DNA of 64,000 nucleotides from positions 17,206 to 81,205 of the forward strand of contig JBDTME010000006.1 in NCBI GenBank assembly GCA_039934415.1, written 5' to 3'. Of the stretch, positions 10,491 to 61,554 are shown piece after piece (the stretch's first letter is position 1; each line of letters begins with the position of its first letter). The position numbers and the translations under genes are program-made. Under the pieces are notes generated by a model. That model saw only the letters and a program-made list of their open reading frames with translations. It was not told the origin of the DNA and ran no database searches. The DNA comes from Patescibacteria group bacterium (GTDB taxonomy: Bacteria > Patescibacteriota > Microgenomatia > UBA1400 > PJMF01).

Positions 10491-12899
10491 ATGGCGAAAA
10501 AACAACGCCCAAGTTTAACAAACCTCTACACCAAAGAGGTAAAAGTTGGTGAAAAGGTAATTACCCTCGAAGTGGGTCGCTTTAGCGAACAGGTCGAGGC
10601 TGCTGTCATGGCCAAATGTGGTGACACATGGGTGCACGTGACCTTAGCACTCGGTAAAGAAACTGCTTTGGGTTATTTCCCATTGCAAGTTGAGTATGTC
10701 GAAAAACTCTATGCTGCTGGAATGATTAAGGGATCTCGCTGGGTAAAGCGTGACGGTCGTCCAACTGAGGATGCAGTCCTTCGTGGTCGTGTCATCGATC
10801 GTACCCTTCGACCATTATTTGCTGAAGGTTTAACACGAGAAGTTCAAGTTATCTGTACCGTTTTATCCGCTGATGGAATCAACGATCCAGATATGGTTGC
10901 ACTTGTCGGAGCAGCCGCAGCAGTTGAAATTTCTTCTATCCCATTTGATGGTCCAGTCGCAGGTTTGCGTATTGGCTACAACATTGCCGAAAAGAAATTC
11001 GTTTACAATCCAACTTTCACTGAAAAAGAAACCAGTGATATGGATTTGATTTTATGTGGAAATGCAGATGCCATCGTGATGGTTGAAGCAGGTGCCAAAG
11101 AAATTTCAGAAGAAGTCATGATCGAGGCTTTTGATAAAGGTCAGGCTCAACTGTCAGAAATGGCAAAATCCATTAAAGAGATGGGTGAGGAAATTGGTAA
11201 AGAAAAATTCACCTTTATCCCAGAAGAAGAGCACGTAGAACTGCAAGCAGCGTTGAACAAGAAGTACGCCAAAAAAATTGCAGAGATGGTTGTGTTAGAA
11301 GGCAAACTTTTACCATTTGACCTCGATGTACTCGTCGCTGAAGTGAAAGTTGAGCGCGAAGATCTCGAAGAAAACGATATCAAGCACGCCTTTTACAACT
11401 TAATGAGAACCGAAGGTCGTCGCATGATCATTGAAGACGGGATCCGTCCAGATGACCGCAAGACAACTGAGATTCGTCCAATCACCGTTGCTGTTGACGT
11501 TCTTCCAATGACCCATGGTAGTGCTATGTTCAAACGAGGAGCAACTCAAGCACTCACGATCACTACTTTAGGTTCTCCATCTCTTGGTCAATTGATCGAA
11601 GACATGGAAGGTGAGCAAGTTCGTCACTATATTCATCACTACAACATGCCTCCATATGCTTCTGGTGAAGCTGGACGCATTGGCTATCCAAAACGCCGAG
11701 AAATCGGACACGGTGCTCTTGCAGAACGTGCATTGTTCCCAATGCTGCCAACTCAGGAAGAGTTTCCATATACCATTCAGGTTGTTTCTGAAATCATGAG
11801 TTCCAATGGCTCGACTTCCCAAGCTTCTGTTTGTGGATCGACAATGTCACTCATGGCTGCCGGTGTCCCAATCAAACGACCAGTTGCAGGTATTGCAATG
11901 GGTCTGATGACTGATGGTAAAGGCAAGTACGTTGTCTTGTCTGACATCCAAGGTTTGGAAGATCACGTTGGAGACATGGACTTCAAAGTTGCTGGAACCA
12001 CGGTTGGTATCACTGCCATGCAGATGGATATCAAGATCAAAGGGATCCCAATGGACGTGATGAAAAAAGCACTTGGTCAGGCCCGAGAAGGTCGACTCTT
12101 CATCTTGGATAAGATGTTGGCTTGTATCGCTGAACCACGTAAAACTGTTTCAACCTTGGCGCCTAAAGTTCAACAATTGTCCATCCCGGGTGACCGAATT
12201 GGAGAATTGATTGGTCCAGGAGGAAAGGTCATTAAAAATATCATTGCTGTTACCGGTGCTCAAGTTGACGTCGATGAAGCAGATGGTAAAGGAATTGTAA
12301 ATATTTCTTCCGATGACCAAGCCAAAATCGATCAAGCGTTTAAGTGGATTTCGGACATGATGCGTGTGTTGACCGTTGGTGAAGAGTTCGATGGATTAGT
12401 GACTCGGGTCGAAGGATACGGAGCTTTTGTCGAGTTCCTTCCAGGACGTGAAGGATTAGTCCACGTTTCAACGATGGCAACTGAGTTCGTTCGAGATGCC
12501 CATGATATGGTCAACCTCGGGGACAATGTTCACGTTAGAATTGCCGGTATCGATGAAGAAGGCAAGATCAAACTATCGATGTTAACTCCAGAACAAGAAG
12601 AGCAGGCTCGTCAAAACCGACCTCCTCGTCCAGAAGGTGGAGATCGAGGTGGATTTAGCGGTGGCAGTCGCGGAGGTTTCAGTGGAGGCGATCGAGGTGG
12701 AAGTAGAGGCGGATTTGGTGGAAACCGAGGTGGCAGTGGCCGCAGTTTTGGTGGCGGTGATCGCGGAGGCAGCCGAGGCGGCTTCAGCGGTGGTGACCGA
12801 GGTGGCAGTCGTGGAGGTAGTACCGGCCGCAGTTTCACTCCCCGAAATGATCGTGCACCAGCATCAAAAGATAGCTTTTCACAAAAATCATTTGAGTGA
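10491..12899 (+). CDS. pnp: Polynucleotide phosphorylase (PNPase) with a C-terminal Gly/Arg-rich (RGG) tail
   Basis: Two RNase PH domains, KH and S1, then about 95 aa of GGDRGG/SRGGFSGG repeats. A roughly 300-nt 5' leader precedes it. Confidence 0.95.
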   Translation: MAKKQRPSLTNLYTKEVKVGEKVITLEVGRFSEQVEAAVMAKCGDTWVHVTLALGKETALGYFPLQVEYVEKLYAAGMIKGSRWVKRDGRPTEDAVLRGRVIDRTLRPLFAEGLTREVQVICTVLSADGINDPDMVALVGAAAAVEISSIPFDGPVAGLRIGYNIAEKKFVYNPTFTEKETSDMDLILCGNADAIVMVEAGAKEISEEVMIEAFDKGQAQLSEMAKSIKEMGEEIGKEKFTFIPEEEHVELQAALNKKYAKKIAEMVVLEGKLLPFDLDVLVAEVKVEREDLEENDIKHAFYNLMRTEGRRMIIEDGIRPDDRKTTEIRPITVAVDVLPMTHGSAMFKRGATQALTITTLGSPSLGQLIEDMEGEQVRHYIHHYNMPPYASGEAGRIGYPKRREIGHGALAERALFPMLPTQEEFPYTIQVVSEIMSSNGSTSQASVCGSTMSLMAAGVPIKRPVAGIAMGLMTDGKGKYVVLSDIQGLEDHVGDMDFKVAGTTVGITAMQMDIKIKGIPMDVMKKALGQAREGRLFILDKMLACIAEPRKTVSTLAPKVQQLSIPGDRIGELIGPGGKVIKNIIAVTGAQVDVDEADGKGIVNISSDDQAKIDQAFKWISDMMRVLTVGEEFDGLVTRVEGYGAFVEFLPGREGLVHVSTMATEFVRDAHDMVNLGDNVHVRIAGIDEEGKIKLSMLTPEQEEQARQNRPPRPEGGDRGGFSGGSRGGFSGGDRGGSRGGFGGNRGGSGRSFGGGDRGGSRGGFSGGDRGGSRGGSTGRSFTPRNDRAPASKDSFSQKSFE

Positions 12900-47784: not shown

Positions 47785-48210
47785 TGGTGGAGATGAGGGG
47801 TTATGAACCCCTGTCCGCATACGGCAGACTAGCATCATCTACAGATATAGTTCACTTTTCGTAAAGAGTCGTAGGTGAGTGAACGAACCTGACAACCCTT
47901 CGCTGTTCAAAGTCTTATGTCTTTACGGAACAGTACGTATCGACAGTCACACGAACTTGGTTTTCACCCAATCGTTTCCGCTCGTGAAAGATCTCGATTG
48001 AATGTCTATTTAAGCAGCGTAAGCTAAATTAGCAGCAGCTGGTGTGATAGAAGCAATTGCTGAGTCGACTACTCCGAAGAGTGAGGCAACAGCAGTTTTT
48101 GCTTTACTGACAATTGAATTGACAGTTAGTTTTTTAACTATGTTTAGCCTCAGTAGTAAAGGAGGATCTGCAGATGTTAATGTGCGTACACGTCGAGTCA
48201 ATACATCCCC
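47785..48210 (-). ncRNA. ssrA: tmRNA (SsrA)
   Basis: Minus-strand 5' end GGGGATGTATTGACTCGACG resembles the tmRNA 5' consensus GGGGnUGAUUCUGGAUUCGACG. The 3' end GGACAGGGGTTCATAACCCCTCATCTCCACCA has a T-arm-like hairpin, and the acceptor strand CATCTCC pairs with the 5' GGGGATG (one G-U) before a terminal ACCA. An internal tag reading frame ends ...AANLAYAA-TAA. Confidence 0.8.
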
Positions 48211-52710: not shown

Positions 52711-53654
52711 AAGTTACCGTGGTGATACCACTTTTAAATGAAGTACTCAGTCTTGATGCTTTACTACATGCATTGATGAAGCAGACTCTTTCTCCAACTG
52801 AAGTGATTTTAGTTGATGGTGGGTCAAAAGATGGATCGATAGAAAAAATCCAAGAATGGCAACAAAAAAAATTATCGTTCAATTTGGTGCTTCTTGAGAA
52901 ACTGGGTGCGAATCGATCGGTCGCTCGCAATTTTGGAATCAAGGAAGCAAGAACCGAAGTGATTGCTCTGACCGATGCGGGATGCAAACCAAAAGCCGAC
53001 TGGCTGGAAAAGTTGACGACACCATTTATTGACGAAGAACGGACTGAAGTTGTGGCAGGTTTCTATGACCCAGCTCCGCAAAACTGGTGGGAGGATGTGC
53101 TTGCTGATTATACGTGTACTCGTGACTGGAATTTCCAACCTAATACTTTTCTACCATCGTCTCGTTCATTAGCTATCACTAAGACAATTTGGCATAAAGT
53201 CGGCGGATACCCAGAGCATCTCAATACGTGTGAGGATCTCATTTTTGCGGAAAAATTAAAAAACAAGTCAAAACACTGGCAAGTGGTTAAAGAGGCCCAA
53301 GTGATCTGGAACCAACCTCACAATTTATCTGAACTCAGTCAAAAAATTTTCGGATACGCCACAGGGGATTTACAGGCCAAGTATGAACGACACGTCAACA
53401 AGATTTATTCAGCGATGTGGAGAATTATTGTTCTGATTTGTGTGGCAGTTCCAGCAGCGTTTATTGGTCAGCCGATAATTCGAGTATTTGGGTTATCCTT
53501 TTTTGCCCTCTATATCGTAGGTAGCCTGGGCAAACATCCTAGAATGCTCAAGTATCCCTTGGCGATTTTCGCCATCCCAGTCATTCAGCTCACCGTTGAT
53601 GCCTCGCTCGTTCAAGCTCTGATCTATCACAAGCTATCCTCTCAATATAAGTAG
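52707..53654 (+). CDS. Glycosyltransferase family 2 with C-terminal TM helices
   Basis: VVIPLLNE ... VILVDGGSKDGS ... DAG(C) DxD-like motifs of GT2. Confidence 0.8.
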   Translation: MKVTVVIPLLNEVLSLDALLHALMKQTLSPTEVILVDGGSKDGSIEKIQEWQQKKLSFNLVLLEKLGANRSVARNFGIKEARTEVIALTDAGCKPKADWLEKLTTPFIDEERTEVVAGFYDPAPQNWWEDVLADYTCTRDWNFQPNTFLPSSRSLAITKTIWHKVGGYPEHLNTCEDLIFAEKLKNKSKHWQVVKEAQVIWNQPHNLSELSQKIFGYATGDLQAKYERHVNKIYSAMWRIIVLICVAVPAAFIGQPIIRVFGLSFFALYIVGSLGKHPRMLKYPLAIFAIPVIQLTVDASLVQALIYHKLSSQYK

Positions 53655-55360
53655 CTTTTTTTCTGGTAAAATAGGTCACAATCTGGAGAGGTCGCATAGT
53701 GGCCTAGTGCATCGGTCTTGAAAACCGACATCCGAAAGGATCGAGGGTTCGAATCCCTCCCTCTCCGCCATCGTGTACGAATGGCTAAAAGAGCTTCCGA
53801 TTGTTCGGGTGAATAGGGCTTTTCTGTGAGTTCTAACGAAAGGTATTTCTGTTCTAGAGCAGGATAGGCTTTTTTGATCTCTGCGAAGTGTTCTGTGAGC
53901 TCTATATAGAGCTTTCCTGCCTTGATTTTAGGACCATATCCCAATGCCATAAGGATTTCTTTCTTCAGTTCTAACCCTCCATGAAGGAATGCTTCGTGAG
54001 CGTAGGTGGCGAAGTGAAAAGTTCTCTCTGTAAGCTCGAGCCACTCAACGGCTCGCTGCTCAGTTCTTCTGAGTTTCTCCTTTAGTTCGGTAATTTTGGT
54101 TTGAAGTTCGTTCCTTTGTTTCACAAACATGTCATCGTCAATGAGTTCTCTAAACCTCATCTTGGTTAAGTTGTCGAGCTCTGTTTGTGTAGTGACTAAC
54201 GTTTTATGTTGCATGTCATAAATTTTGCTGCGGTCTTCAATTTCTCGGTCGTTGTTTTCATTGAGGACTTCTAGTGCCCAATCTTTAAACTCGGGGAGGA
54301 TGGTAATAGCATCCAGTTCTGTTTCGATTTGCTCTTCGAGTTTTTCGAGTGGGACCACTTTCCTTTGAGTACATTTTATGGTCGTTTTCTTCCTGGTACA
54401 GTGATAATAGGTGTACTCTTTAATCTCACCAGTTTTCTTAATGAATTTTTTCTTCGTTTCGGCGGTATATAGACAGCCACATTCTCCACACCGAACAAAA
54501 CCAGTAAAGGCAAACTCATGCTTCTTGGGGCGTGGTTTACCTTTTCTTCCCATCAATACTTGCACTCGGTCAAACTCTTCCAAGGTGATCATGGGATCAT
54601 GTTTGCCTTCATAGTGTGTGCCTTTATGATTAAGAATGCCTGCATAGAAGACACTATTGAAAATCTTGTAGATCCCGCTTCGAGAAAGCGGTTTTCCTCC
54701 TAAGCGTTTCGTTTTTCTGGTGAGGTAACCCCATTCTTCATTGGCGACTTTCAAAATTTGTGGTGGAGTATACGCTCCAGTCAGCATTAAGTCCCACATC
54801 TTACTAATCAGGTTAAATCGATCTGTATCTTTGGCAATGGTGTTTTCAGTTCTGTCATTGAGATATCCAGCTGGAGCCATGTTGGGGAGCCAGCCTTTTT
54901 GTAACTTTGTCTCTATACCACGTTTCACATTCTTGCTTAGGTCCAGAATGTATTGATTGGAACTAGCGGCTTCAACACTGAAGATAATAACGTTATCACC
55001 TGGTAAATATTCACGATCATAGGTTTGAATTGACTTGAGCACACTTTGTTGGAGTAACCAACTGACACGACCACTGTCAATCGGGTTCCTGGAAAGGCGG
55101 TTAATTTGCCAACAAAGAAGCCCATCAGCCTCACCATTCTCTAATTTATCCATAACCTCTTCAAAGATTGGGCGATTCCCAGGTTTTTTGGCGGATTTTG
55201 CCTCGGTAAAGATTTTTACGATGTGAAGATTATTTTCTTTGGCTAACTGGTTGAGCTTGTTAATTTGGCTCTCAATGGACTGAACTTGCCTGTCTTCGCT
55301 GTCGGAAGACTTGCGTGCGTAGAGAAAGTAGCGGATGTGTTGTCTGTCTTTTGTGATCAT
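53642..55360 (-). CDS. Large serine recombinase (resolvase/invertase catalytic domain + recombinase domain + zinc ribbon)
   Basis: N-terminal YARKSSDSEDRQVQSIESQ catalytic Ser context, a central recombinase domain, a CGECGC...C Zn-ribbon and a coiled coil. The last ~40 codons of the ORF are antisense to tRNA-Ser, so the true C-terminus is uncertain. Confidence 0.85.
   Translation of the reverse strand: MITKDRQHIRYFLYARKSSDSEDRQVQSIESQINKLNQLAKENNLHIVKIFTEAKSAKKPGNRPIFEEVMDKLENGEADGLLCWQINRLSRNPIDSGRVSWLLQQSVLKSIQTYDREYLPGDNVIIFSVEAASSNQYILDLSKNVKRGIETKLQKGWLPNMAPAGYLNDRTENTIAKDTDRFNLISKMWDLMLTGAYTPPQILKVANEEWGYLTRKTKRLGGKPLSRSGIYKIFNSVFYAGILNHKGTHYEGKHDPMITLEEFDRVQVLMGRKGKPRPKKHEFAFTGFVRCGECGCLYTAETKKKFIKKTGEIKEYTYYHCTRKKTTIKCTQRKVVPLEKLEEQIETELDAITILPEFKDWALEVLNENNDREIEDRSKIYDMQHKTLVTTQTELDNLTKMRFRELIDDDMFVKQRNELQTKITELKEKLRRTEQRAVEWLELTERTFHFATYAHEAFLHGGLELKKEILMALGYGPKIKAGKLYIELTEHFAEIKKAYPALEQKYLSLELTEKPYSPEQSEALLAIRTRWRRGRDSNPRSFRMSVFKTDALGHYATSPDCDLFYQKKSYLY
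53685..53770 (+). tRNA. tRNA-Ser (anticodon TGA)
   Basis: Cloverleaf folded manually: acceptor GGAGAGG/CCTCTCC, 3-bp D-stem, anticodon stem TCGGT/ACCGA with loop CTTGAAA, long variable arm, T-arm GAGGG-TTCGAAT-CCCTC, discriminator G and CCA. Confidence 0.9.
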
Positions 55361-55408
55361 GTTCTGTTTTGTATATGATGACTAAAGTACATCATTAGTA
55401 TATACCAC

Positions 55409-56089
55409 TTAGCTTGCTTTATCCAAGAACTCTTTGAATTGAACTAAGCTCTTTTCCATACGCAGATACTTTTTAGTAAATTTGTGGTTGTGTTTTACTC
55501 TTTTCACCTCGTGCAAATGTCGTTCATATCTATGCATCAAAGCTGTTGCATGAAACCAAGAATACATTGAGTGACGATCATTTCTCTTTCGACAGGTATA
55601 GGTCAGTTCAAAGCAATGCCGACAACCAAAAAAGTTTCTGACTTTGTACAATACTCCCACTCTCTTGCCACAAATTAGTCCGTTTTTAGGAACCGGACAG
55701 AGGAACCAATATCGCCACCCACCATAGGTACACGGTGTCCTGGTTAAATAAATTTTCAGTGGATATTTTTGACCATCACTCAAGTCATAGAGTAGGTAGA
55801 GGTAGGGGTGATAGTCCTCAACATGGCTCGAGATACTGAAGGTTTGTGTTTCGTCATCGAGTGAGTTGTACCACTCCATAGCGCCTTGTTTGTCCGCACA
55901 CAGGTAGTGATATTTCCTCAGCCAATAGATGTCGAATTTAAGCAGAAAGTTTGATTCTAGTTTCATATGGGTAGCCTGGGACTGTGTCGAAATCATTAAG
56001 GATGTCATCTCATTCTGTCCTGGTTTTGTCCAACTTTTGTATAACCTCTTTTTCAGTCTCGGGTAGCTGATGGGGTTTGTTTTTCCCAT
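55409..56089 (-). CDS. Hypothetical Cys-rich (zinc-ribbon) protein, island-encoded
   Basis: CPVPKNGLICGKRVG...GCRHC metal-binding-like motifs. No family recognised. Confidence 0.3.
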   Translation of the reverse strand: MGKTNPISYPRLKKRLYKSWTKPGQNEMTSLMISTQSQATHMKLESNFLLKFDIYWLRKYHYLCADKQGAMEWYNSLDDETQTFSISSHVEDYHPYLYLLYDLSDGQKYPLKIYLTRTPCTYGGWRYWFLCPVPKNGLICGKRVGVLYKVRNFFGCRHCFELTYTCRKRNDRHSMYSWFHATALMHRYERHLHEVKRVKHNHKFTKKYLRMEKSLVQFKEFLDKAS

Positions 56090-56397
56090 TGTTCTTTTCG
56101 CCCCAGCCTGCCATAGGTCATCTCGATATCTGGGTCAGGAAAGGGTGGAGTTGGTAATGAATCTCCATAAATCAAGGCTTGCCTATTCTGGGCGTGCAGT
56201 TGCCGGAAAGTACTCATGTCACCACTCTTGAGAGCGGTCTTCATTTTCAAGAACCGCTTGCAACATGCTGAATTTCTAACTCTGGCATAATAGGCTCGCC
56301 ATACTTGTCTTCTTCTGTAAAACTCACCGCTGTCGATGAGCTCTGATGGAACCCTCATTTTTATTTGCTCGTCTGGTTTTTCTTTCTTAAATGCCAT
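56053..56397 (-). CDS. Hypothetical basic protein (114 aa)
   Basis: ORF overlapping its neighbours by a few codons in an operon-like arrangement. Confidence 0.3.
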   Translation of the reverse strand: MAFKKEKPDEQIKMRVPSELIDSGEFYRRRQVWRAYYARVRNSACCKRFLKMKTALKSGDMSTFRQLHAQNRQALIYGDSLPTPPFPDPDIEMTYGRLGRKEQWEKQTPSATRD

Positions 56398-57154
56398 ACT
56401 TTTTACCTCCTTTACTCAATGTATTGGCCACATTCATCAGATCCCAACCGTTCTCATTCCAGAACTTATCTTTGTCCATTGCATTCAAACAATGATTAAT
56501 TTGTTCATCGCTGAAACCAGCTTTATAAAGTTTATGCAAAGCACTTATTTGTTTAGGAAAATTCACAAACTTTTTACCAAACTCAGCTTCGACTGAGTGA
56601 ATATTTTCAATGCACTTTTGATGACCTTGAAGGTTTGGACAAATTGTTTTCCGAGAAACTTTAGGTTTTTCGCTAGGACCACTTTCAAGTAGGCTGGTAA
56701 TATTTTCTTCTTTCCCTTGTTCTTCTTTAGTGTCCCTCAGCTGGGACGATGTTTGTCCCCGATTTGAAACGATCTCTTTGTTTTCTGAAGATTGTCCCCC
56801 GTTTGGGACGATCTTTTTGTGACGGTAAAATTCGGCATTCTGCTCCCATAAATCAACAATGGCATACGTCGTTCGAGGTTTGGTTTTGGCGGGAATTGTC
56901 CCTGAAGTTTTAATCCAACCACGATTAATCAAGGACTCTAAAAGACGGTAGACAGTGTTTTTACTGATACCACATTTCTTTCCCAGCTCTCTAGCCGAAT
57001 AGTAAACTCTGCCACGTTCACCAGCGATGCGTTTTAGCGTTAGATAAAAACCTCTTTCTTCTAGAGTTGAATGATTCACAATGTAATTAGGGACAATGGA
57101 GAAGTAGGCTCTATCGCTTGACTCATCTTTGATATTAAATTCTGTTTGTTTCAT
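56387..57154 (-). CDS. Winged-helix/HTH DNA-binding protein, putative replication initiator or organizer, with internal iteron-like repeats
   Basis: N-terminal wHTH (ARELGKKCGISKNTVYRLLESLINRGWI) resembles phage/plasmid Rep or DnaD-like initiators. The central coding region holds three copies of GTCCC-N5/6-GGGAC/GAAAC. Confidence 0.45.
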   Translation of the reverse strand: MKQTEFNIKDESSDRAYFSIVPNYIVNHSTLEERGFYLTLKRIAGERGRVYYSARELGKKCGISKNTVYRLLESLINRGWIKTSGTIPAKTKPRTTYAIVDLWEQNAEFYRHKKIVPNGGQSSENKEIVSNRGQTSSQLRDTKEEQGKEENITSLLESGPSEKPKVSRKTICPNLQGHQKCIENIHSVEAEFGKKFVNFPKQISALHKLYKAGFSDEQINHCLNAMDKDKFWNENGWDLMNVANTLSKGGKKYGI

Positions 57155-57345
57155 AACAACTCGAGTTGTTTCTTCCGCTCCATGACTTGTTGGTACTGAA
57201 CTTTCGTCATTGGTTTGTAAATAATCTGCATGAGTCGAACTAGGGAGAGTCCTTTTTCATACGCGTCTTCATAACTAATCTCTTTGCCGAATCGAGCTTT
57301 ATAGAGCATTTGGTATTTTTCAACTTGAGCCTCTGTAATAAACAT
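57151..57345 (-). CDS. Hypothetical small protein (64 aa)
   Basis: ORF whose stop overlaps the start of the downstream gene. Confidence 0.3.
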   Translation of the reverse strand: MFITEAQVEKYQMLYKARFGKEISYEDAYEKGLSLVRLMQIIYKPMTKVQYQQVMERKKQLELL

Positions 57346-57347
57346 AG

Positions 57348-57644
57348 CTAGACCGCCGTGCTATAAATTCTATTTTTAAGCATCTTCGTGTTTTCAAAGA
57401 AAGAACGCGCTTCAACTATCAAACGGCCAGCAAAATACTCCTGGACCGAATATTCAAGTTCTGGTGTTTTAAGAAAAATGAAACCAATTTTGCGAACATT
57501 GTCGCGATTCAATGAAAGAAGCTCGTAGTGAAGAGTAACGAGTGCTGAAGAGAGTCCAATGTCGTAACTGAGGAAATGGTGGTCACCCTGAAGGTTCCCT
57601 AATATTGTGTTCATAGTATGTTCTGCTAGCTCAAGTCTAGGCAA
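57348..57644 (-). CDS. Hypothetical protein (98 aa)
   Basis: ORF; first structural gene downstream of the XRE regulator. Confidence 0.3.
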   Translation of the reverse strand: MPRLELAEHTMNTILGNLQGDHHFLSYDIGLSSALVTLHYELLSLNRDNVRKIGFIFLKTPELEYSVQEYFAGRLIVEARSFFENTKMLKNRIYSTAV

Positions 57645-57953
57645 AACATACCGACAGATCTAGAAAGTTTGTGGTTGTTTAGGTTTATTTGTGAAGGAGA
57701 GTACCAGCTATTGTTTGGTTTGAGTTGTTTTTGTTACACTCCGATTAATGAAAAGATCATTTTCTGATAAAGAGAAACTCAATAATGTTGTCTAAAAAAT
57801 TAATCGATGAGTACAAACAAATTATTAAGGAAGATTATGGACTTGAGTTGTCAGACGAGGATGCACATGACTGTGCTACCAATCTCGTCGATTACTTCGA
57901 GTTACTAATGAAAATCGATCACCAAACGAAAGTGAAGAAAGAAGAGTAAAGGT

Positions 57954-58181
57954 CTAAAAAGGGAGCAGCTCGCAAGAATCTACTTTTAATGCCTTGGAGA
58001 TTTTGTAAAGTGTTCTGACCGTGGGGTTTCGCTCACCTCGTTCAATAAGTCCAATGTAGGTTCGATCCATCGAAACCATGACAGCAAGTGCTTCTTGTGT
58101 GACACCTTTACTCTTCCTAGTTTGTTGAAGCTTTTGGCCGAATTTCTCTAGTATGTGTTTGTGAGTGATAGGTTTTCCCAT
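57954..58181 (-). CDS. XRE-family helix-turn-helix transcriptional regulator (Cro/CI-type)
   Basis: HTH_XRE signature QEALAVMVSMDRTYIGLIERGERNPTVRTLYKISKAL. Confidence 0.85.
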   Translation of the reverse strand: MGKPITHKHILEKFGQKLQQTRKSKGVTQEALAVMVSMDRTYIGLIERGERNPTVRTLYKISKALKVDSCELLPF

Positions 58182-58330
58182 TCCTCATACTTTAGAGACT
58201 CCCTGTCTTCTTTTCCTCTGACTCCTTGTCATCATTTATGTTATACTTGGCCTGGTAGTAGGAGCAGTTTCGATTTGACTTTCCAGGCTAAAGGAAGGTA
58301 ACATCTCGAAACTTACGGGAGGAAAAGCCT

Positions 58331-59227
58331 ATGACAAGAAAAACGTTAAAAAAACTACCGTTGTTGGTACTTTTTCTAGCAATGAGTCTTTTAGCTGGTG
58401 GGTTTGTGCTGAGATCTAAAGCACAAACACAAGTAATACAGATCTGGGATCAGAATTTAGAACAAATAAAAGCCCTGACAGAAGCTTCTAACAACGATCC
58501 GAAATACCGTGAACACAATTCACAAGCCAGCAAGGATTTATCAGATGAGCTCTGTTCATTCACTACGCGTCCTGCTGAAGAGCGAGAAAAAGCAGTGGGT
58601 GCTATTCGTGATTTCTTGGAAATGCCAACAGCTGAAATAAAGTATGAATGTAACGATGCCTTTTATGACTTAGAAAGTGATCGCTTTATTCAAGCAAAGA
58701 GTGAGACTTATTCCCTAGACAAGACTTACTTCATTGTGAATTTTGTAACAAACCATATCATTCAAGTTGAAGAGACTCCTGGAACCTGGGGATATAAAAC
58801 AGATGGGACTAGGTGGTTTAGTGAACAAAAAACCTATGACTATTCAAGGAACCTCTCTCAGAAAGACGCTGAACAACTTGCGAGAAACTTTATTGCTAGA
58901 CGCCAAATGGCTTTGGGGAGCATCGATCTGAGTAAACTAAAGCTAGAGACTGGCAAAAAAGATGTTGGTAATGGCCAAATAAATTATTTCTTCATTTGGA
59001 AGGGAGAGTCTAAAACAGTTCATCTCGACCCTCCTGCTGAAACTTGTAGTCAAGATTTGGATAAGAAGGCAGAAGGTTTGTACCTTAATGGCAATGGAGT
59101 ACCCTGTATAAAGCGGTACGAGTCTACAGAAACGCCAACGCTGAGCATTGCCTTCACCAACAGTGGTCAGCTGATTAACTTCTCCAATGAACTAGAGGGA
59201 CAAATTGGTAGGGCAAGGATGAGATGA
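58331..59227 (+). CDS. Secreted or membrane-anchored hypothetical protein (298 aa)
   Basis: Signal-peptide-like N-terminus MTRKTLKKLPLLVLFLAMSLLAGG. No motif. Divergent from the XRE gene. Confidence 0.35.
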   Translation: MTRKTLKKLPLLVLFLAMSLLAGGFVLRSKAQTQVIQIWDQNLEQIKALTEASNNDPKYREHNSQASKDLSDELCSFTTRPAEEREKAVGAIRDFLEMPTAEIKYECNDAFYDLESDRFIQAKSETYSLDKTYFIVNFVTNHIIQVEETPGTWGYKTDGTRWFSEQKTYDYSRNLSQKDAEQLARNFIARRQMALGSIDLSKLKLETGKKDVGNGQINYFFIWKGESKTVHLDPPAETCSQDLDKKAEGLYLNGNGVPCIKRYESTETPTLSIAFTNSGQLINFSNELEGQIGRARMR

Positions 59228-59528
59228 CGCTGTTTACCAACACTTTAATCAAAATGTGGGTGAGCTTTTTAGAAGCACAGCTCCAAATTATTAAACAGCT
59301 AATCAAGAAGTGAATGAATTTAGTCACAATTTTCGTACACATTTTGCCCACCCTAAAATTGAGGCCTAATTATTTCGTCAAAAATGTTACAGAAGAAATA
59401 CATCAGAAGCATACATTCTCGGCTTTTTAATCTCATAAATTGGTGATATATTATCCAGATAAAATCGAACAATTCTCCAGAGTAGCTGCGATAGAAGAAT
59501 TTACTCACAGAAATCTGATAAGGAAAAT

Positions 59529-60191
59529 ATGTCCAACATAGAACATTTGGAAGAAAGTATTGAAGCTCATCTAGAACAAGTAAGACAGGCTCTTGCCGAA
59601 TTTAGAGATAAATTTGCCGTTAGTTTTATCGTTAGCATTTCTGGCGGAGCTGAAGAGCATAATACAACTTATGCACATGATGTGATTTCTCAATTGATTG
59701 TTGGTCTGAAAAACTCTTCTTGCGCTATATTGACTGGTGGTACACAAGGAGGGATCCCCGAACTAGGAACCAGGATTGCCAGAGAACATAAGCTATCTAC
59801 AATTGCAGTTTTTCCTCCTAAAGCCAAAAAATATGTGCTCTTTAATGAGCTTGATTTGCCGATTGAGACACTCCCTCCTTCAGTTGGACCAGCTGGCTTT
59901 GGTTCTGAAACGCCTTCGTTTGCTCAATTACCTGATTATGCTGTGTTTATTGGTGGGTCGTATGGAACTTTGGCTGAGGTGAGCACAATGATGAAAGTAA
60001 ACACTAAACGTAAAAAGGATAATGTTGAGCCGATCTATATTGTTCCAATTGCTGGCTCTGAAGGAGTAGCTGCTTTAATCCCTTTGCTCGTACAACTAAA
60101 CCCCAGTCTTGCCTTCTGTTTGCCTGAGTTTGAATTAACAACCGGAGCAGCTGCGGCTGAATTTATTAAGGAGACTCAGAGTAAAAGATAA
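59529..60191 (+). CDS. LOG/SLOG-family Rossmann-fold protein (second, divergent LOG paralog)
   Basis: ILTGGTQGGIPELG and AVFIGGSYGTLAEV motifs parallel the GGGPGVM / KGGTGTLSE motifs of the LOG protein at 30311. Confidence 0.55.
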   Translation: MSNIEHLEESIEAHLEQVRQALAEFRDKFAVSFIVSISGGAEEHNTTYAHDVISQLIVGLKNSSCAILTGGTQGGIPELGTRIAREHKLSTIAVFPPKAKKYVLFNELDLPIETLPPSVGPAGFGSETPSFAQLPDYAVFIGGSYGTLAEVSTMMKVNTKRKKDNVEPIYIVPIAGSEGVAALIPLLVQLNPSLAFCLPEFELTTGAAAAEFIKETQSKR

Positions 60192-60222
60192 ACTGTCTTT
60201 TGCTTATCAGTAGAAATGTACT

Positions 60223-61173
60223 ATGCCGCTTGTTGAAACCCCAAAAAGTTTGCTCTTGGACAAAGGACCGCTTACAAAATTACAAACAAATAAAACTGAT
60301 CTCTCGAATGCTGAAACAGAATACACAAATATTTGCACTGGCTTTGGTGTAGATCATGAGATTCCGGTCAGGATTGCAGTATATGCGCTTCCGGTACTTC
60401 AAATGGGAGAAAAATTTCTGCGAGCTCAAACTGAGTTTTATGTCGCGGAGGCTTTTGCCACAAAACTCAATGGTCTTGATCCCAATAAGGTGCAAGTTAA
60501 TATTGCCTTGATTAAAGAATACATTAAGCTTTTTAAAACGGAGTTATCTGTTGTAAATTCTCCAGTTTGGCTAGATGAGCGCGACCCCTTTGAAGTTCAG
60601 CGACATGCTCTGACAAAAGAATTGGCTAAAATATTAAGAGAGCATGGTTCAGAAAGAATAATTCGTTTTGCTGACAGTCGGAATGGCGATGAATCTCTGG
60701 CATATATAGCATCGCATGCCCTTTATATGTGGGACACTCTTAATGTTGACGAAGATAAATTCATCACTGAGAGAAATGTCTCTCCGCAATCATTATTGAT
60801 GGTTGGAGGACCAGCAGAAAAACTTTTTTTTGAAGCTCGGCAGTTGCTATTGAGTCACTTTCCTACAGTTTCAACTCGCTCTACAGTCCAAGGTTTTACC
60901 GAAATCGGTCGTCGTCCACCATATTATGCTGTTGATAGTGAAATGGTTGTTAATGGCAAGAATAATTTAAGAATTGGCTTTGAAGAAATCATGTCTATTT
61001 CTGATCCTGATGCACTTAGAGATTCGCTTTACCTGATTATCAGTTTGTCAGAAACCTTAACATTTGACGATATTCCTAGGGTGAAAAAGGGTCAAATCAA
61101 ACCTCAAGAGCTTGAAGATCTGACATCAGCTTGCAATAAGCTACAGAAGATTATTGCCCAACTAAGAAGCTGA
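60223..61173 (+). CDS. Hypothetical protein (316 aa), island cargo
   Basis: ORF with AGGAG-like context. Weak HIGH-like stretch (TGFGVDHEIP) but no KMSKS, so no confident family. Confidence 0.3.
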   Translation: MPLVETPKSLLLDKGPLTKLQTNKTDLSNAETEYTNICTGFGVDHEIPVRIAVYALPVLQMGEKFLRAQTEFYVAEAFATKLNGLDPNKVQVNIALIKEYIKLFKTELSVVNSPVWLDERDPFEVQRHALTKELAKILREHGSERIIRFADSRNGDESLAYIASHALYMWDTLNVDEDKFITERNVSPQSLLMVGGPAEKLFFEARQLLLSHFPTVSTRSTVQGFTEIGRRPPYYAVDSEMVVNGKNNLRIGFEEIMSISDPDALRDSLYLIISLSETLTFDDIPRVKKGQIKPQELEDLTSACNKLQKIIAQLRS

Positions 61174-61174
61174 A

Positions 61175-61468
61175 ATGAATGCACGAGTTGTCTGATCTGG
61201 AGTGACCTCACCGGTTATCTTTCAACAGCTGTGCCGTATGGGCAGGATGGCTATTGAATAAGGCTATTGATTTTAGTACAATACTGGTTGTTTACAGTTG
61301 ATATAAAGCATTTGACTGGAGTCACGATCCAGAAGCTGCGAGTCAAAATACTCGACGGAAATTGAGCCGTAAAATACAATAGCCGATGTCGCGTATGCGG
61401 AGCCGGCCTGAGAGCTCAAGAATTAATATTCTTGAGAATAAGGATGGGACCGCGGGAGGTCCTTTTTT
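61175..61468 (+). ncRNA. Candidate T-box-like leader or structured RNA ending in an intrinsic terminator
   Basis: AAGGATGGGACCGCGGGAGGTCCTTTTTT contains a near-consensus T-box sequence (AGGGUGGNACCGCG, here AGGAUGGGACCGCG). A terminator hairpin GGACC-N6-GGTCC-T6 overlaps it. Upstream are internally repetitive G(C/U)CG(C/U)GUAUG(G/C)G(C/G)AG blocks. Stem I and the specifier loop are not resolved. Confidence 0.4.
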
Positions 61469-61554
61469 AATACCTCTCGTTCCTTAGTTATCACTCATTT
61501 GAGTGGTAGTTAATGAACGTGAGGTTTTTTGTTGCAAAAAAAGGAAAAATCTAT

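Follow-up and report, generated by a model that had tools for sequence, protein, structure and literature searches.

A probable plasmid-like element integrated at a tRNA-Ser gene in a Patescibacteria genome, with a recombinase gene that reads through its own attachment site

The DNA considered here is a stretch of 64,000 nucleotides from a Patescibacteria group bacterium (assembly GCA_039934415.1, contig JBDTME010000006.1, positions 17,206 to 81,205 of the forward strand), referred to below as the window, in which a block of minus-strand genes begins with a 572-amino-acid (aa) recombinase placed directly against a tRNA-Ser(TGA) gene. An initial annotation had read this block, with a rightward cargo arm, as a small integrative element at 53642-61173. 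The locus raises the question of what kind of unit this is, where it starts and ends, and how its recombinase is related to the tRNA gene beside it. Comparison of sequences leads us to regard positions ~53767-59346, with good confidence, as an integrated plasmid-like element of ~5.6 kb, belonging to a family of large serine recombinases (LSRs) that extends across the Patescibacteria. The initial annotation missed that the open reading frame (ORF) of the recombinase crosses the attachment site and the whole tRNA gene in antisense, and that this is a family-wide design.

The tRNA-Ser(TGA) gene, the integration target, lies at 53685-53770 on the plus strand (ARAGORN; Rfam tRNA, 59.6 bits), and the recombinase ORF at 53642-55360 on the minus strand. 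The protein has the Pfam domains Resolvase (PF00239, residues 12-156, 68.6 bits, with a YARKSS motif near the N-terminus), Recombinase (PF07508) and Zn_ribbon_recom (PF13408), and it aligns with the A118 integrase (4KIS) at E 1e-10, residues 211-449 covering the C-terminal domain of that integrase, its coiled-coil region included. Given these domains and this alignment, the 572-aa protein is classed as a large serine recombinase, as had been proposed at the outset, and not as a small resolvase. The ORF continues in antisense across all 86 nt of the tRNA gene and 40 nt beyond; residues up to ~531 are encoded by the element, and the final 42 codons are the antisense of the tRNA and of the 40 nt upstream of it. 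The C-terminus ..IRTRW-RRGRDSNPRS.. is a backward translation of the tRNA 3' end, in which the Trp codon TGG is the antisense of the tRNA CCA and DSNP corresponds to the T-loop. Position 53642, given earlier as the left end, is only where this read-through ORF has its stop codon, and the element itself starts within the tRNA 3' end, at ~53767.

The same target is found without the element in related genomes. In three of them (L093, L096 and L097, in the numbering used here for the loci compared) the tRNA-Ser(TGA) gene stands behind the same MT-GT4-GT2 cluster and the recombinase is absent. L093 and L096, which show the element-free target, are relatives at genus level or higher only (63-66% protein identity); L093 keeps the left flank and the tRNA and lacks the element, the opposite of the unchanged gene context that would speak against a mobile origin. 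Exact-sequence look-ups of the recombinase and of the GT2 flank returned no record, and a genome scan with the GT2 flank as query gave no match. The final four bases of the tRNA gene in the window, GCCA (53767-53770), would be supplied by the element. The corresponding tRNA-Ser(TGA) gene of L096 (3325-3408) ends without an encoded CCA (..CTCTCCGCAACAG). Comparison of the two genes suggests that the encoded GCCA in the window would be element-derived, and that integration may add an encoded CCA to a tRNA gene.

The reading frame through the tRNA is no peculiarity of this copy. A protein search with the LSR gave 4937 proteins at E <= 1e-10 among the candidates scored, of which the best 120 were examined; these are 63-84% identical to the query, and those with names come from Patescibacteria. 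At least 109 of these best 120 have tRNA-antisense peptide ends, 85 of them with tails antisense to the T-loop and 24 ending within the antisense of the acceptor stem. A further six have tails of the attP type described below, unlike the tRNA-antisense ones and similar among themselves. In the 130 loci that were fetched, the 3' end of the LSR gene adjoins a convergent tRNA gene for Ser (several isoacceptors), Asn, Gln, Asp or Glu, and across 58 distinct junctions with these five kinds of tRNA the sequence TTCGTNCAC-NN-TGGC is invariant just before the tRNA. The Arg codon in this segment is CGT in all 58, compared with 9.5% of the Arg codons elsewhere in these genes, and it follows that the final LSR codons are constrained as DNA as well as protein; the tails behind the conserved Trp vary freely with the identity of the tRNA. 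The titles of the metagenome-assembled genomes (MAGs) concerned include Gottesman-, Sacchari-, Paceibacterota, Berkel-, Shapiro-, Staskawicz-, Nomura-, Moranii-, Gracili- and Peribacteria. On the sequences compared, the tRNA-overlapping recombinase ORF is a family-wide design across the Patescibacteria. The literature searched contained no LSR family whose attP falls within its own 3' codons, nor any use of the T-loop as an attB motif, and no account of the present element family was found.

Two kinds of junction deserve separate mention. At L034, L037, L048, L049, L065 and L107 ARAGORN calls no tRNA, and the tRNA-Asn antisense goes no further than the anticodon loop. The idea that such a partial tRNA-Asn was an attP carrying half a tRNA was dropped, since intron-containing tRNA-Asn genes explain it better: one report (PMC13011429) describes such genes, with group I introns, in Patescibacteria, and a break at the anticodon loop fits these introns. 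In L004-L007 the tRNA that ARAGORN calls beside the recombinase 3' end is a tRNA-Ser with an ACT anticodon; this is unusual, and is perhaps a mis-folded call or a truly odd tRNA.

How the recombinase would choose its site can be followed from a circular relative. The 10,471-nt contig L046 has an 88-nt terminal overlap and closes to a circle of 10,383 bp, in which the LSR ORF crosses the junction into a non-tRNA arm, TGGCTC-CGCACTGTGAACAATGTTAGAAC, and so spans attP. An arm of this type also stands behind the LSR in L008-L012, L035, L038, L040, L043, L053 and L059. In L001, L019, L036, L052, L058, L078 and L101 such P arms reappear 5-11 kb upstream of tRNA-integrated copies, preceded by unrelated host sequence and the same TGGCNN block. 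The arm of the circle and its reappearance upstream together identify attP (P'-core-P), attL (P'-core-tRNA) and attR (flank-core-P). The block of identity between attL and attR is 5-6 nt long, TGGC(G/T)(G/C) in L001, L019 and L101, and the displaced GCCA is seen at the attR of L001 and L019.

Counting from the T of TGG, the dyad symmetry of attP is best centred at position 5.5; a centre at 8.5 was rejected, attP and attB differing from position 7 onward. This places the crossover core at positions 5-6, corresponding to tRNA nucleotides 71-72, and in the window the putative attL crossover dinucleotide is the CC at 53765-53766, the exact crossover being deduced from the identity block, the dyad centre and the numbering of A118. 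The P' arm at 53767-53795 on the minus strand falls within the final conserved recombinase codons (..EALLAIRTRW). An outer motif is found at positions 21-29 in attP arms and at 16-24 in tRNA arms. With the core at 5-6, the attP motif TGTTAGAAC/ATCCGAAC occupies half-site positions 16-24, and the T-loop/T-stem sequence of the tRNA, GATTCGAAC, occupies 11-19. The A118 integrase has the same geometry, the motif for its zinc-ribbon domain being shifted 5 bp inward in attB (11-19) relative to attP (16-24) (PMC3783163). A short shared core and an attB outer motif 5 bp closer to it are characteristic of LSR sites, and both are found here on comparative evidence.

From these sites a mechanism can be proposed. 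In the free circle the 3' end of the LSR ORF would contain the whole of attP, with the P' arm encoding the conserved C-terminus ..S(I/V)R(A/T)xW and the P arm a tail that would be dispensable. TGG and the following C are the reverse complement of the tRNA 3' end GCCA, and the next two bases would be the crossover dinucleotide. The partner of attP in recombination would be the 3' end of a tRNA gene with G73 as discriminator, the zinc-ribbon domain presumably reading GATTCGAAC in the tRNA, 5 bp nearer to the crossover than TGTTAGAAC or ATCCGAAC in attP. The TGGC of the P' arm would re-supply GCCA and leave the tRNA intact after integration, with the LSR ORF now running on in antisense through it. 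For the present element the predicted attP junction is CACATTTTGCCGCCATCGTGTACG, and excision should give an attP junction ..TTCGTACACATTTTGCCGCCATCGTGTACGAA.. and an attB junction ..CCCTCCCTCTCC(GC)CACCCTAAAATTG... In its most general form, which we offer as tentative and on balance doubtful, the proposal is that a Patescibacteria LSR lineage lands on the universal tRNA 3' end, with G73-CCA and the last acceptor pairs as core and the T-loop as zinc-ribbon motif. With attP in the last codons, integration would swap the C-terminal tail and the 3' untranslated region and place the gene antisense to an expressed tRNA, so that integration itself would switch the expression or stability of the integrase; to retarget from one tRNA species to another, a few bases beside the core would suffice.

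The closest functional precedent is the Int/attP unit of the phiRSM filamentous phages, which integrate at a 13-nt core, TGGCGGAGAGGGT, the reverse complement of a tRNA-Ser 3' end (PMC3816273). Common to both is a serine recombinase that inserts its carrier, in reverse orientation, at a tRNA-Ser 3' end, and the junction in the window, TGGCGGAGAGGG, matches that published core, the first 12 core bases being the sequence at the window junction. The systems differ in that phiRSM Int is of the small resolvase/invertase type, compared with a 572-aa protein with recombinase and zinc-ribbon domains; the phiRSM attP lies between ORFs, outside the recombinase gene; the identical core there measures 13 nt compared with 5-6 nt here; and the phiRSM carrier is an inovirus. 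The serine integrases of phages and of integrative and conjugative elements (A118/LI, phiC31, Bxb1, TP901-1, SPbeta SprA) have the same domain order, namely resolvase catalytic domain, recombinase domain and zinc ribbon with coiled coil, and the same short identity between attP and attB, and the A118 enzyme shares the 5-bp shift of the outer motif noted above. The present LSR is nevertheless distant from them (~22-28% identity to the integrases of PLSDB and INPHARED, none above 28%, and none above 26% in INPHARED). Its targets are tRNA 3' ends and not a protein-coding gene, its attP lies wholly inside the integrase ORF, it has an extra C-terminal region of ~80 aa behind the coiled coil, and its carrier is a plasmid-like unit of 4-11 kb.

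Attachment sites inside coding sequences are known from SSV-type archaeal integrases and from mycobacteriophages with integration-dependent immunity, in both of which integration alters the product or its 3' end. The same is true of phiRSS0 ORF13. These systems use tyrosine recombinases or XerCD, unlike the LSR here, and SSV splits its integrase into two inactive parts, whereas here only the non-conserved tail past the last conserved residue is exchanged. Islands of the Islander type integrate at tRNA 3' ends, restore the tRNA and leave the displaced fragment at the far end (PMC4383910). Their integrases are tyrosine recombinases, a different class, and the restored and displaced fragment in the present family is only 4-6 nt, which means that repeat-based island finders would miss these elements.

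Where the element ends is less clear than where it starts. No repeat of the tRNA 3' end that could serve as far border occurs in 53-64 kb. The initial annotation had placed the right border at ~61.2 kb, at a structured RNA. That border found no support. The RNA, at 61302-61487 on the plus strand, is a T-box-like leader whose Rfam score of 42 bits falls short of the gathering score of 93; its stem I is much shortened, its T-box sequence is good, and with its own terminator (61446-61463) it belongs to a downstream operon that comprises M15 dipeptidase-like, CntK_N-like, GNAT and HisRS-like genes. The best candidate for the border is a degenerate attR, with a P arm at 59312-59346 on the minus strand and core CC at 59347-59348. 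Here GG-N6-GTGTACGA is in exact register with the Ser-type P arms (0.54 hits expected per window, both strands), and the site GG-CAAAAT-GTGTACGAA lies, on the expected strand, in the intergenic DNA (59227-59529) that directly follows the last shared gene, that of a 298-aa protein; homology with the DNA of L001 ends at 59205. When this candidate is joined to the P' arm, the reconstituted attP shows inverted repeats of 9 bp, free of mismatches, at half-site positions 8-16. These sequence features make a right end near 59347, at a degenerate attR, fairly likely.

A larger element is conceivable, in which the SLOG-like ORF (59529-60191) and the 316-aa ORF that follow the 298-aa gene, and perhaps the T-box operon, would be cargo and attR would lie beyond 64000. 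Elements of 10-11 kb are known among the relatives, some of which hold 3.5-4.3 kb of cargo between the 298-aa homolog and the P arm, metabolic in the case of L001, and the window has no intact P arm. Codon usage points the other way: the five ORFs to the right of the 298-aa ORF are host-typical, and four genes of the element (LSR, the 226-aa Zn-ribbon protein Zn226, the 114-aa protein p114 and the 298-aa ORF) score below all 50 host ORFs. The SLOG-like ORF, the 316-aa ORF and the next three ORFs occur in none of the related loci, an operon under T-box control that ends in a HisRS-like gene looks like housekeeping, short contigs reaching ~65.2 kb have no P arm, and the patterned attR-like site stands just where the shared genes stop. 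We therefore consider a larger element unlikely, and what probability remains falls on other right-end positions.

The SLOG-like ORF, the 316-aa ORF and the T-box-like leader probably belong to the host, judging from these comparisons. Of the cargo arm drawn in the initial annotation, the XRE repressor and the 298-aa protein stay with the element, and the LOG/SLOG paralog and the 316-aa protein probably do not. The LOG/SLOG identity is itself borderline (LDcluster4, 26.2 bits against a cut-off of 26.3, E 6.6e-6), and PADLOC gave no hit for either ORF. A suggested profile of GC content and skew was uninformative. A boundary at 58274, where there is a match to ATCGAAACT, was rejected, the 298-aa gene beyond it being shared with other elements, and a 17-nt repeat at 53922 and 61267 was dropped as a chance match. 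The only significant P-arm profile match, at 55627-55663 on the minus strand within the Zn-ribbon ORF (position weight matrix (PWM) score 22.9, nhmmer E 0.023), is probably due to chance, being absent from 46 homologous genes and having a comparable false positive in L097; less probably, it might be an internal recombinase-binding site.

Several observations weigh against the reading of ~53767-59346 as an integrated element with these ends, and are best taken together. Searches of the window by profile, PWM, nhmmer and Smith-Waterman alignment found no intact P arm. The candidate attR is a 16-nt patterned match with a degenerate outer motif, missed by the PWM and nhmmer profiles, and its host-side bases are CACC and not GCCA, a difference that the deletion of 2 bp would account for. 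Among integrated relatives for which 10 kb of flanking sequence is available, about half have no detectable attR; their elements may be larger, or may often have decayed. The replication gene described below has host-like codon usage. No element-free allele of the source organism was found in other samples, and two other samples have an identical junction between the 298-aa ORF and the SLOG-like ORF. Lastly, the 636-kb MAG contig L117 has an attP-type junction at 11573, inside the contig.

Attachment sites in the relatives show further complexity of this kind. In L117, at L008 1571 and at L038 9849 attP-type junctions occur inside long contigs, and second recombinase genes of ~490-507 aa lie near the first; from these sequences it would seem that arrays or composite elements with two recombinases exist. 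L001 has two types of P arm behind the same host flank tttccaacTGGCGG, 243 nt apart, with an extra copy of the first type 3.1 kb upstream (L001 1-35, 3103-3145 and 3346-3380); a PadR and a P-type ATPase gene lie between, and the sequence behind the P arms is GC-rich. The arrangement suggests successive or tandem integrations at one tRNA.

These points bear also on the state of the present copy. It could be a decayed, immobile relic, whose place beside the tRNA is historical and whose ORF read-through is a by-product with no function. We regard this as possible, though somewhat less probable than not. The right junction is degenerate, the same arrangement is found in three samples with no polymorphism, and the tails behind the conserved Trp vary freely. 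Yet the core ORFs are all intact, the codon usage is still foreign and the P' arm is perfectly conserved. Moreover, a relic would describe the state of this copy, and as such is compatible with an integrated plasmid-like element and does not replace it. The copy may well be locked in place by its degenerate right junction.

The plasmid-like character of the element comes from the genes upstream of the LSR, a core module made up, in order of transcription, of a DUF5659 gene, p64, a replication protein, an optional protein of 105-114 aa and a Zn-ribbon protein. The replication protein (255 aa, 56387-57154, minus strand) is a winged-helix, initiator-like protein with HTH_36/DnaD_N similarity, and matches PHROG replication-initiation families of the O-like and DnaD-like types at 1.6e-9. 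Within the linker-coding part of its gene (56732-56809) are three dyad boxes, GTCCC-N6-GGGAC, starting at 56732, 56755 (degenerate) and 56794; the two perfect ones are the only perfect matches in 64 kb. These are the iteron-like repeats that the initial annotation had seen in a Rep-like gene, and both parts of that claim stood up. The spacing of 39+23 nt recurs in L003, L021 and L022, and the outer pair is kept in L015. Two of the boxes fall in different reading frames, and this, with the conserved spacing, argues for a function at the level of DNA, such as an origin. The O/DnaD-like initiator would then act on three boxes inside its own gene, which are candidates for an origin or iterons.

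There is a parallel in phage lambda, where ori-lambda is located inside the initiator gene. The winged-helix N-terminal domain here matches PHROG O-like families, and in lambda O and DnaD-like initiators, as here, repeated boxes with dyad symmetry lie in the linker-coding part of the gene; there are three boxes here and not four, and their function as an origin is a candidate one. The replication slot is interchangeable among relatives, being filled by a G2P-type rolling-circle Rep in L046 and by a Toprim protein in L038. A replication initiator of its own is expected of an integrative plasmid, and in this family it is seen in the PHROG match, the conserved boxes and the interchangeable Rep types.

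Two further proteins of the module are near-constant companions of the LSR. The Zn-ribbon protein (226 aa, 55409-56089, minus strand) lies directly upstream of it, and homologs with the motif CGRRVGVLY hold the same position in 46 other loci. p64 (64 aa, 57151-57345, minus strand) has tblastn matches in 67 of the 69 loci with at least 3 kb of upstream sequence, co-oriented in 66; a search for p64 homologs gave only 2 hits. Neither protein has a Pfam or PHROG match. In LSR systems a separate directionality factor controls excision, and both are candidates for it, on the grounds of their constant company with the LSR rather than of similarity; the Zn-ribbon protein might equally be another kind of accessory partner, and p64 a regulator. 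The basic protein (114 aa, 56053-56397, minus strand) is optional, with homologs in 8 of the 69 loci at the same position and strand; it and the Zn-ribbon ORF had both been listed behind the recombinase in the initial annotation. The first gene of the operon, at 57348-57644 on the minus strand, encodes a DUF5659 protein (PF18903, 25.6 bits; 45 of 69 loci). Its true start is probably the ATG at 57614, and the leader upstream of it is conserved. The hidden Markov model searches proposed for these ORFs gave matches for the recombinase, the Rep-like protein, XRE and DUF5659.

Divergent from the core operon is p54 (57785-57949, plus strand), with copies 78-79% identical in L001, L008 and L009. It is an apparent small paralog of p64, and the two flank the promoter of the core operon, their likeness being judged by eye from the translations. 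Next comes the XRE-family repressor (75 aa, 57954-58181, minus strand; HTH_3 at 2.8e-15 and a PHROG transcriptional repressor), 82-88% identical in L001, L008, L009 and L015. As had been described, it is divergent from the 298-aa protein (58331-59227, plus strand), which has a signal- or anchor-like N-terminus, is 59-70% identical in the same four loci, and is the last gene common to the related elements. The control region between them (58182-58330) has a mean identity of 82% in four elements. Two direct repeats of 11 nt in it, GACTCC(C/T)TGTC at 58197-58207 and 58220-58230, are candidate operators; the repressor would control the divergent promoter pair. On this conservation, XRE and the apparently secreted 298-aa protein are assigned to the element.

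A layout of integrase, XRE repressor and divergent promoter is also that of a lysogen, and three phage-related readings (prophage, inovirus-like phage, phage satellite) compete with that of a plasmid-like element. The G2P-type Rep of L046 is of the kind found in filamentous phages, and in the phiRSM phages, too, it is a serine recombinase that acts at this tRNA-Ser 3' end. Against this, Pfam and PHROGs gave no match to capsid, terminase or portal in the window, in agreement with the initial annotation, and no candidate for these, for a Zot-like ATPase or for a coat protein in the window and the attP-type relatives examined. Virion and conjugation genes were likewise not found in the window or the relatives examined, and no relative was found in IMG/VR. 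The cargo of the relatives consists of restriction-modification, AbiJ-like, Schlafen-like and metabolic genes, the last being PfkB, GTP cyclohydrolase II and OMP decarboxylase in L001. A phage origin is consequently very improbable, and the original view of a small, plasmid-like, non-phage element at tRNA-Ser is borne out by relatives with defence cargo, one of them circular.

Two neighbouring observations may be added. In L002 (1-7700) a complete trp operon with a Trp-repressor-like gene stands directly beside an element core, and no attR occurs within 10 kb; if confirmed, the carriage of biosynthetic genes by such an element in a reduced genome would deserve attention. In the window, a tmRNA gene (47785-48210, minus strand; tag peptide AANLAYAA) lies 5.5 kb to the left of the element and is not an integration site here.

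The present family is thus a large one, undescribed in the literature searched, and a new form of a known kind of integrated element. The mobile elements of the Patescibacteria (also called the Candidate Phyla Radiation, CPR) are poorly known, and genetic tools for these bacteria do not exist. The family is abundant, spanning many CPR lineages with thousands of matching proteins, and with a duplicated fragment of only 4-6 nt and no phage or conjugation genes its members would be missed by prophage finders as well as island finders. The site model accounts for the use of many different tRNAs by a single integrase family, and predicts the bases that would determine specificity. If it is true, these integrases, with their short and predictable attB, would be natural candidates for DNA delivery into CPR genomes, and would add tRNA-targeting members to the serine-integrase toolbox.

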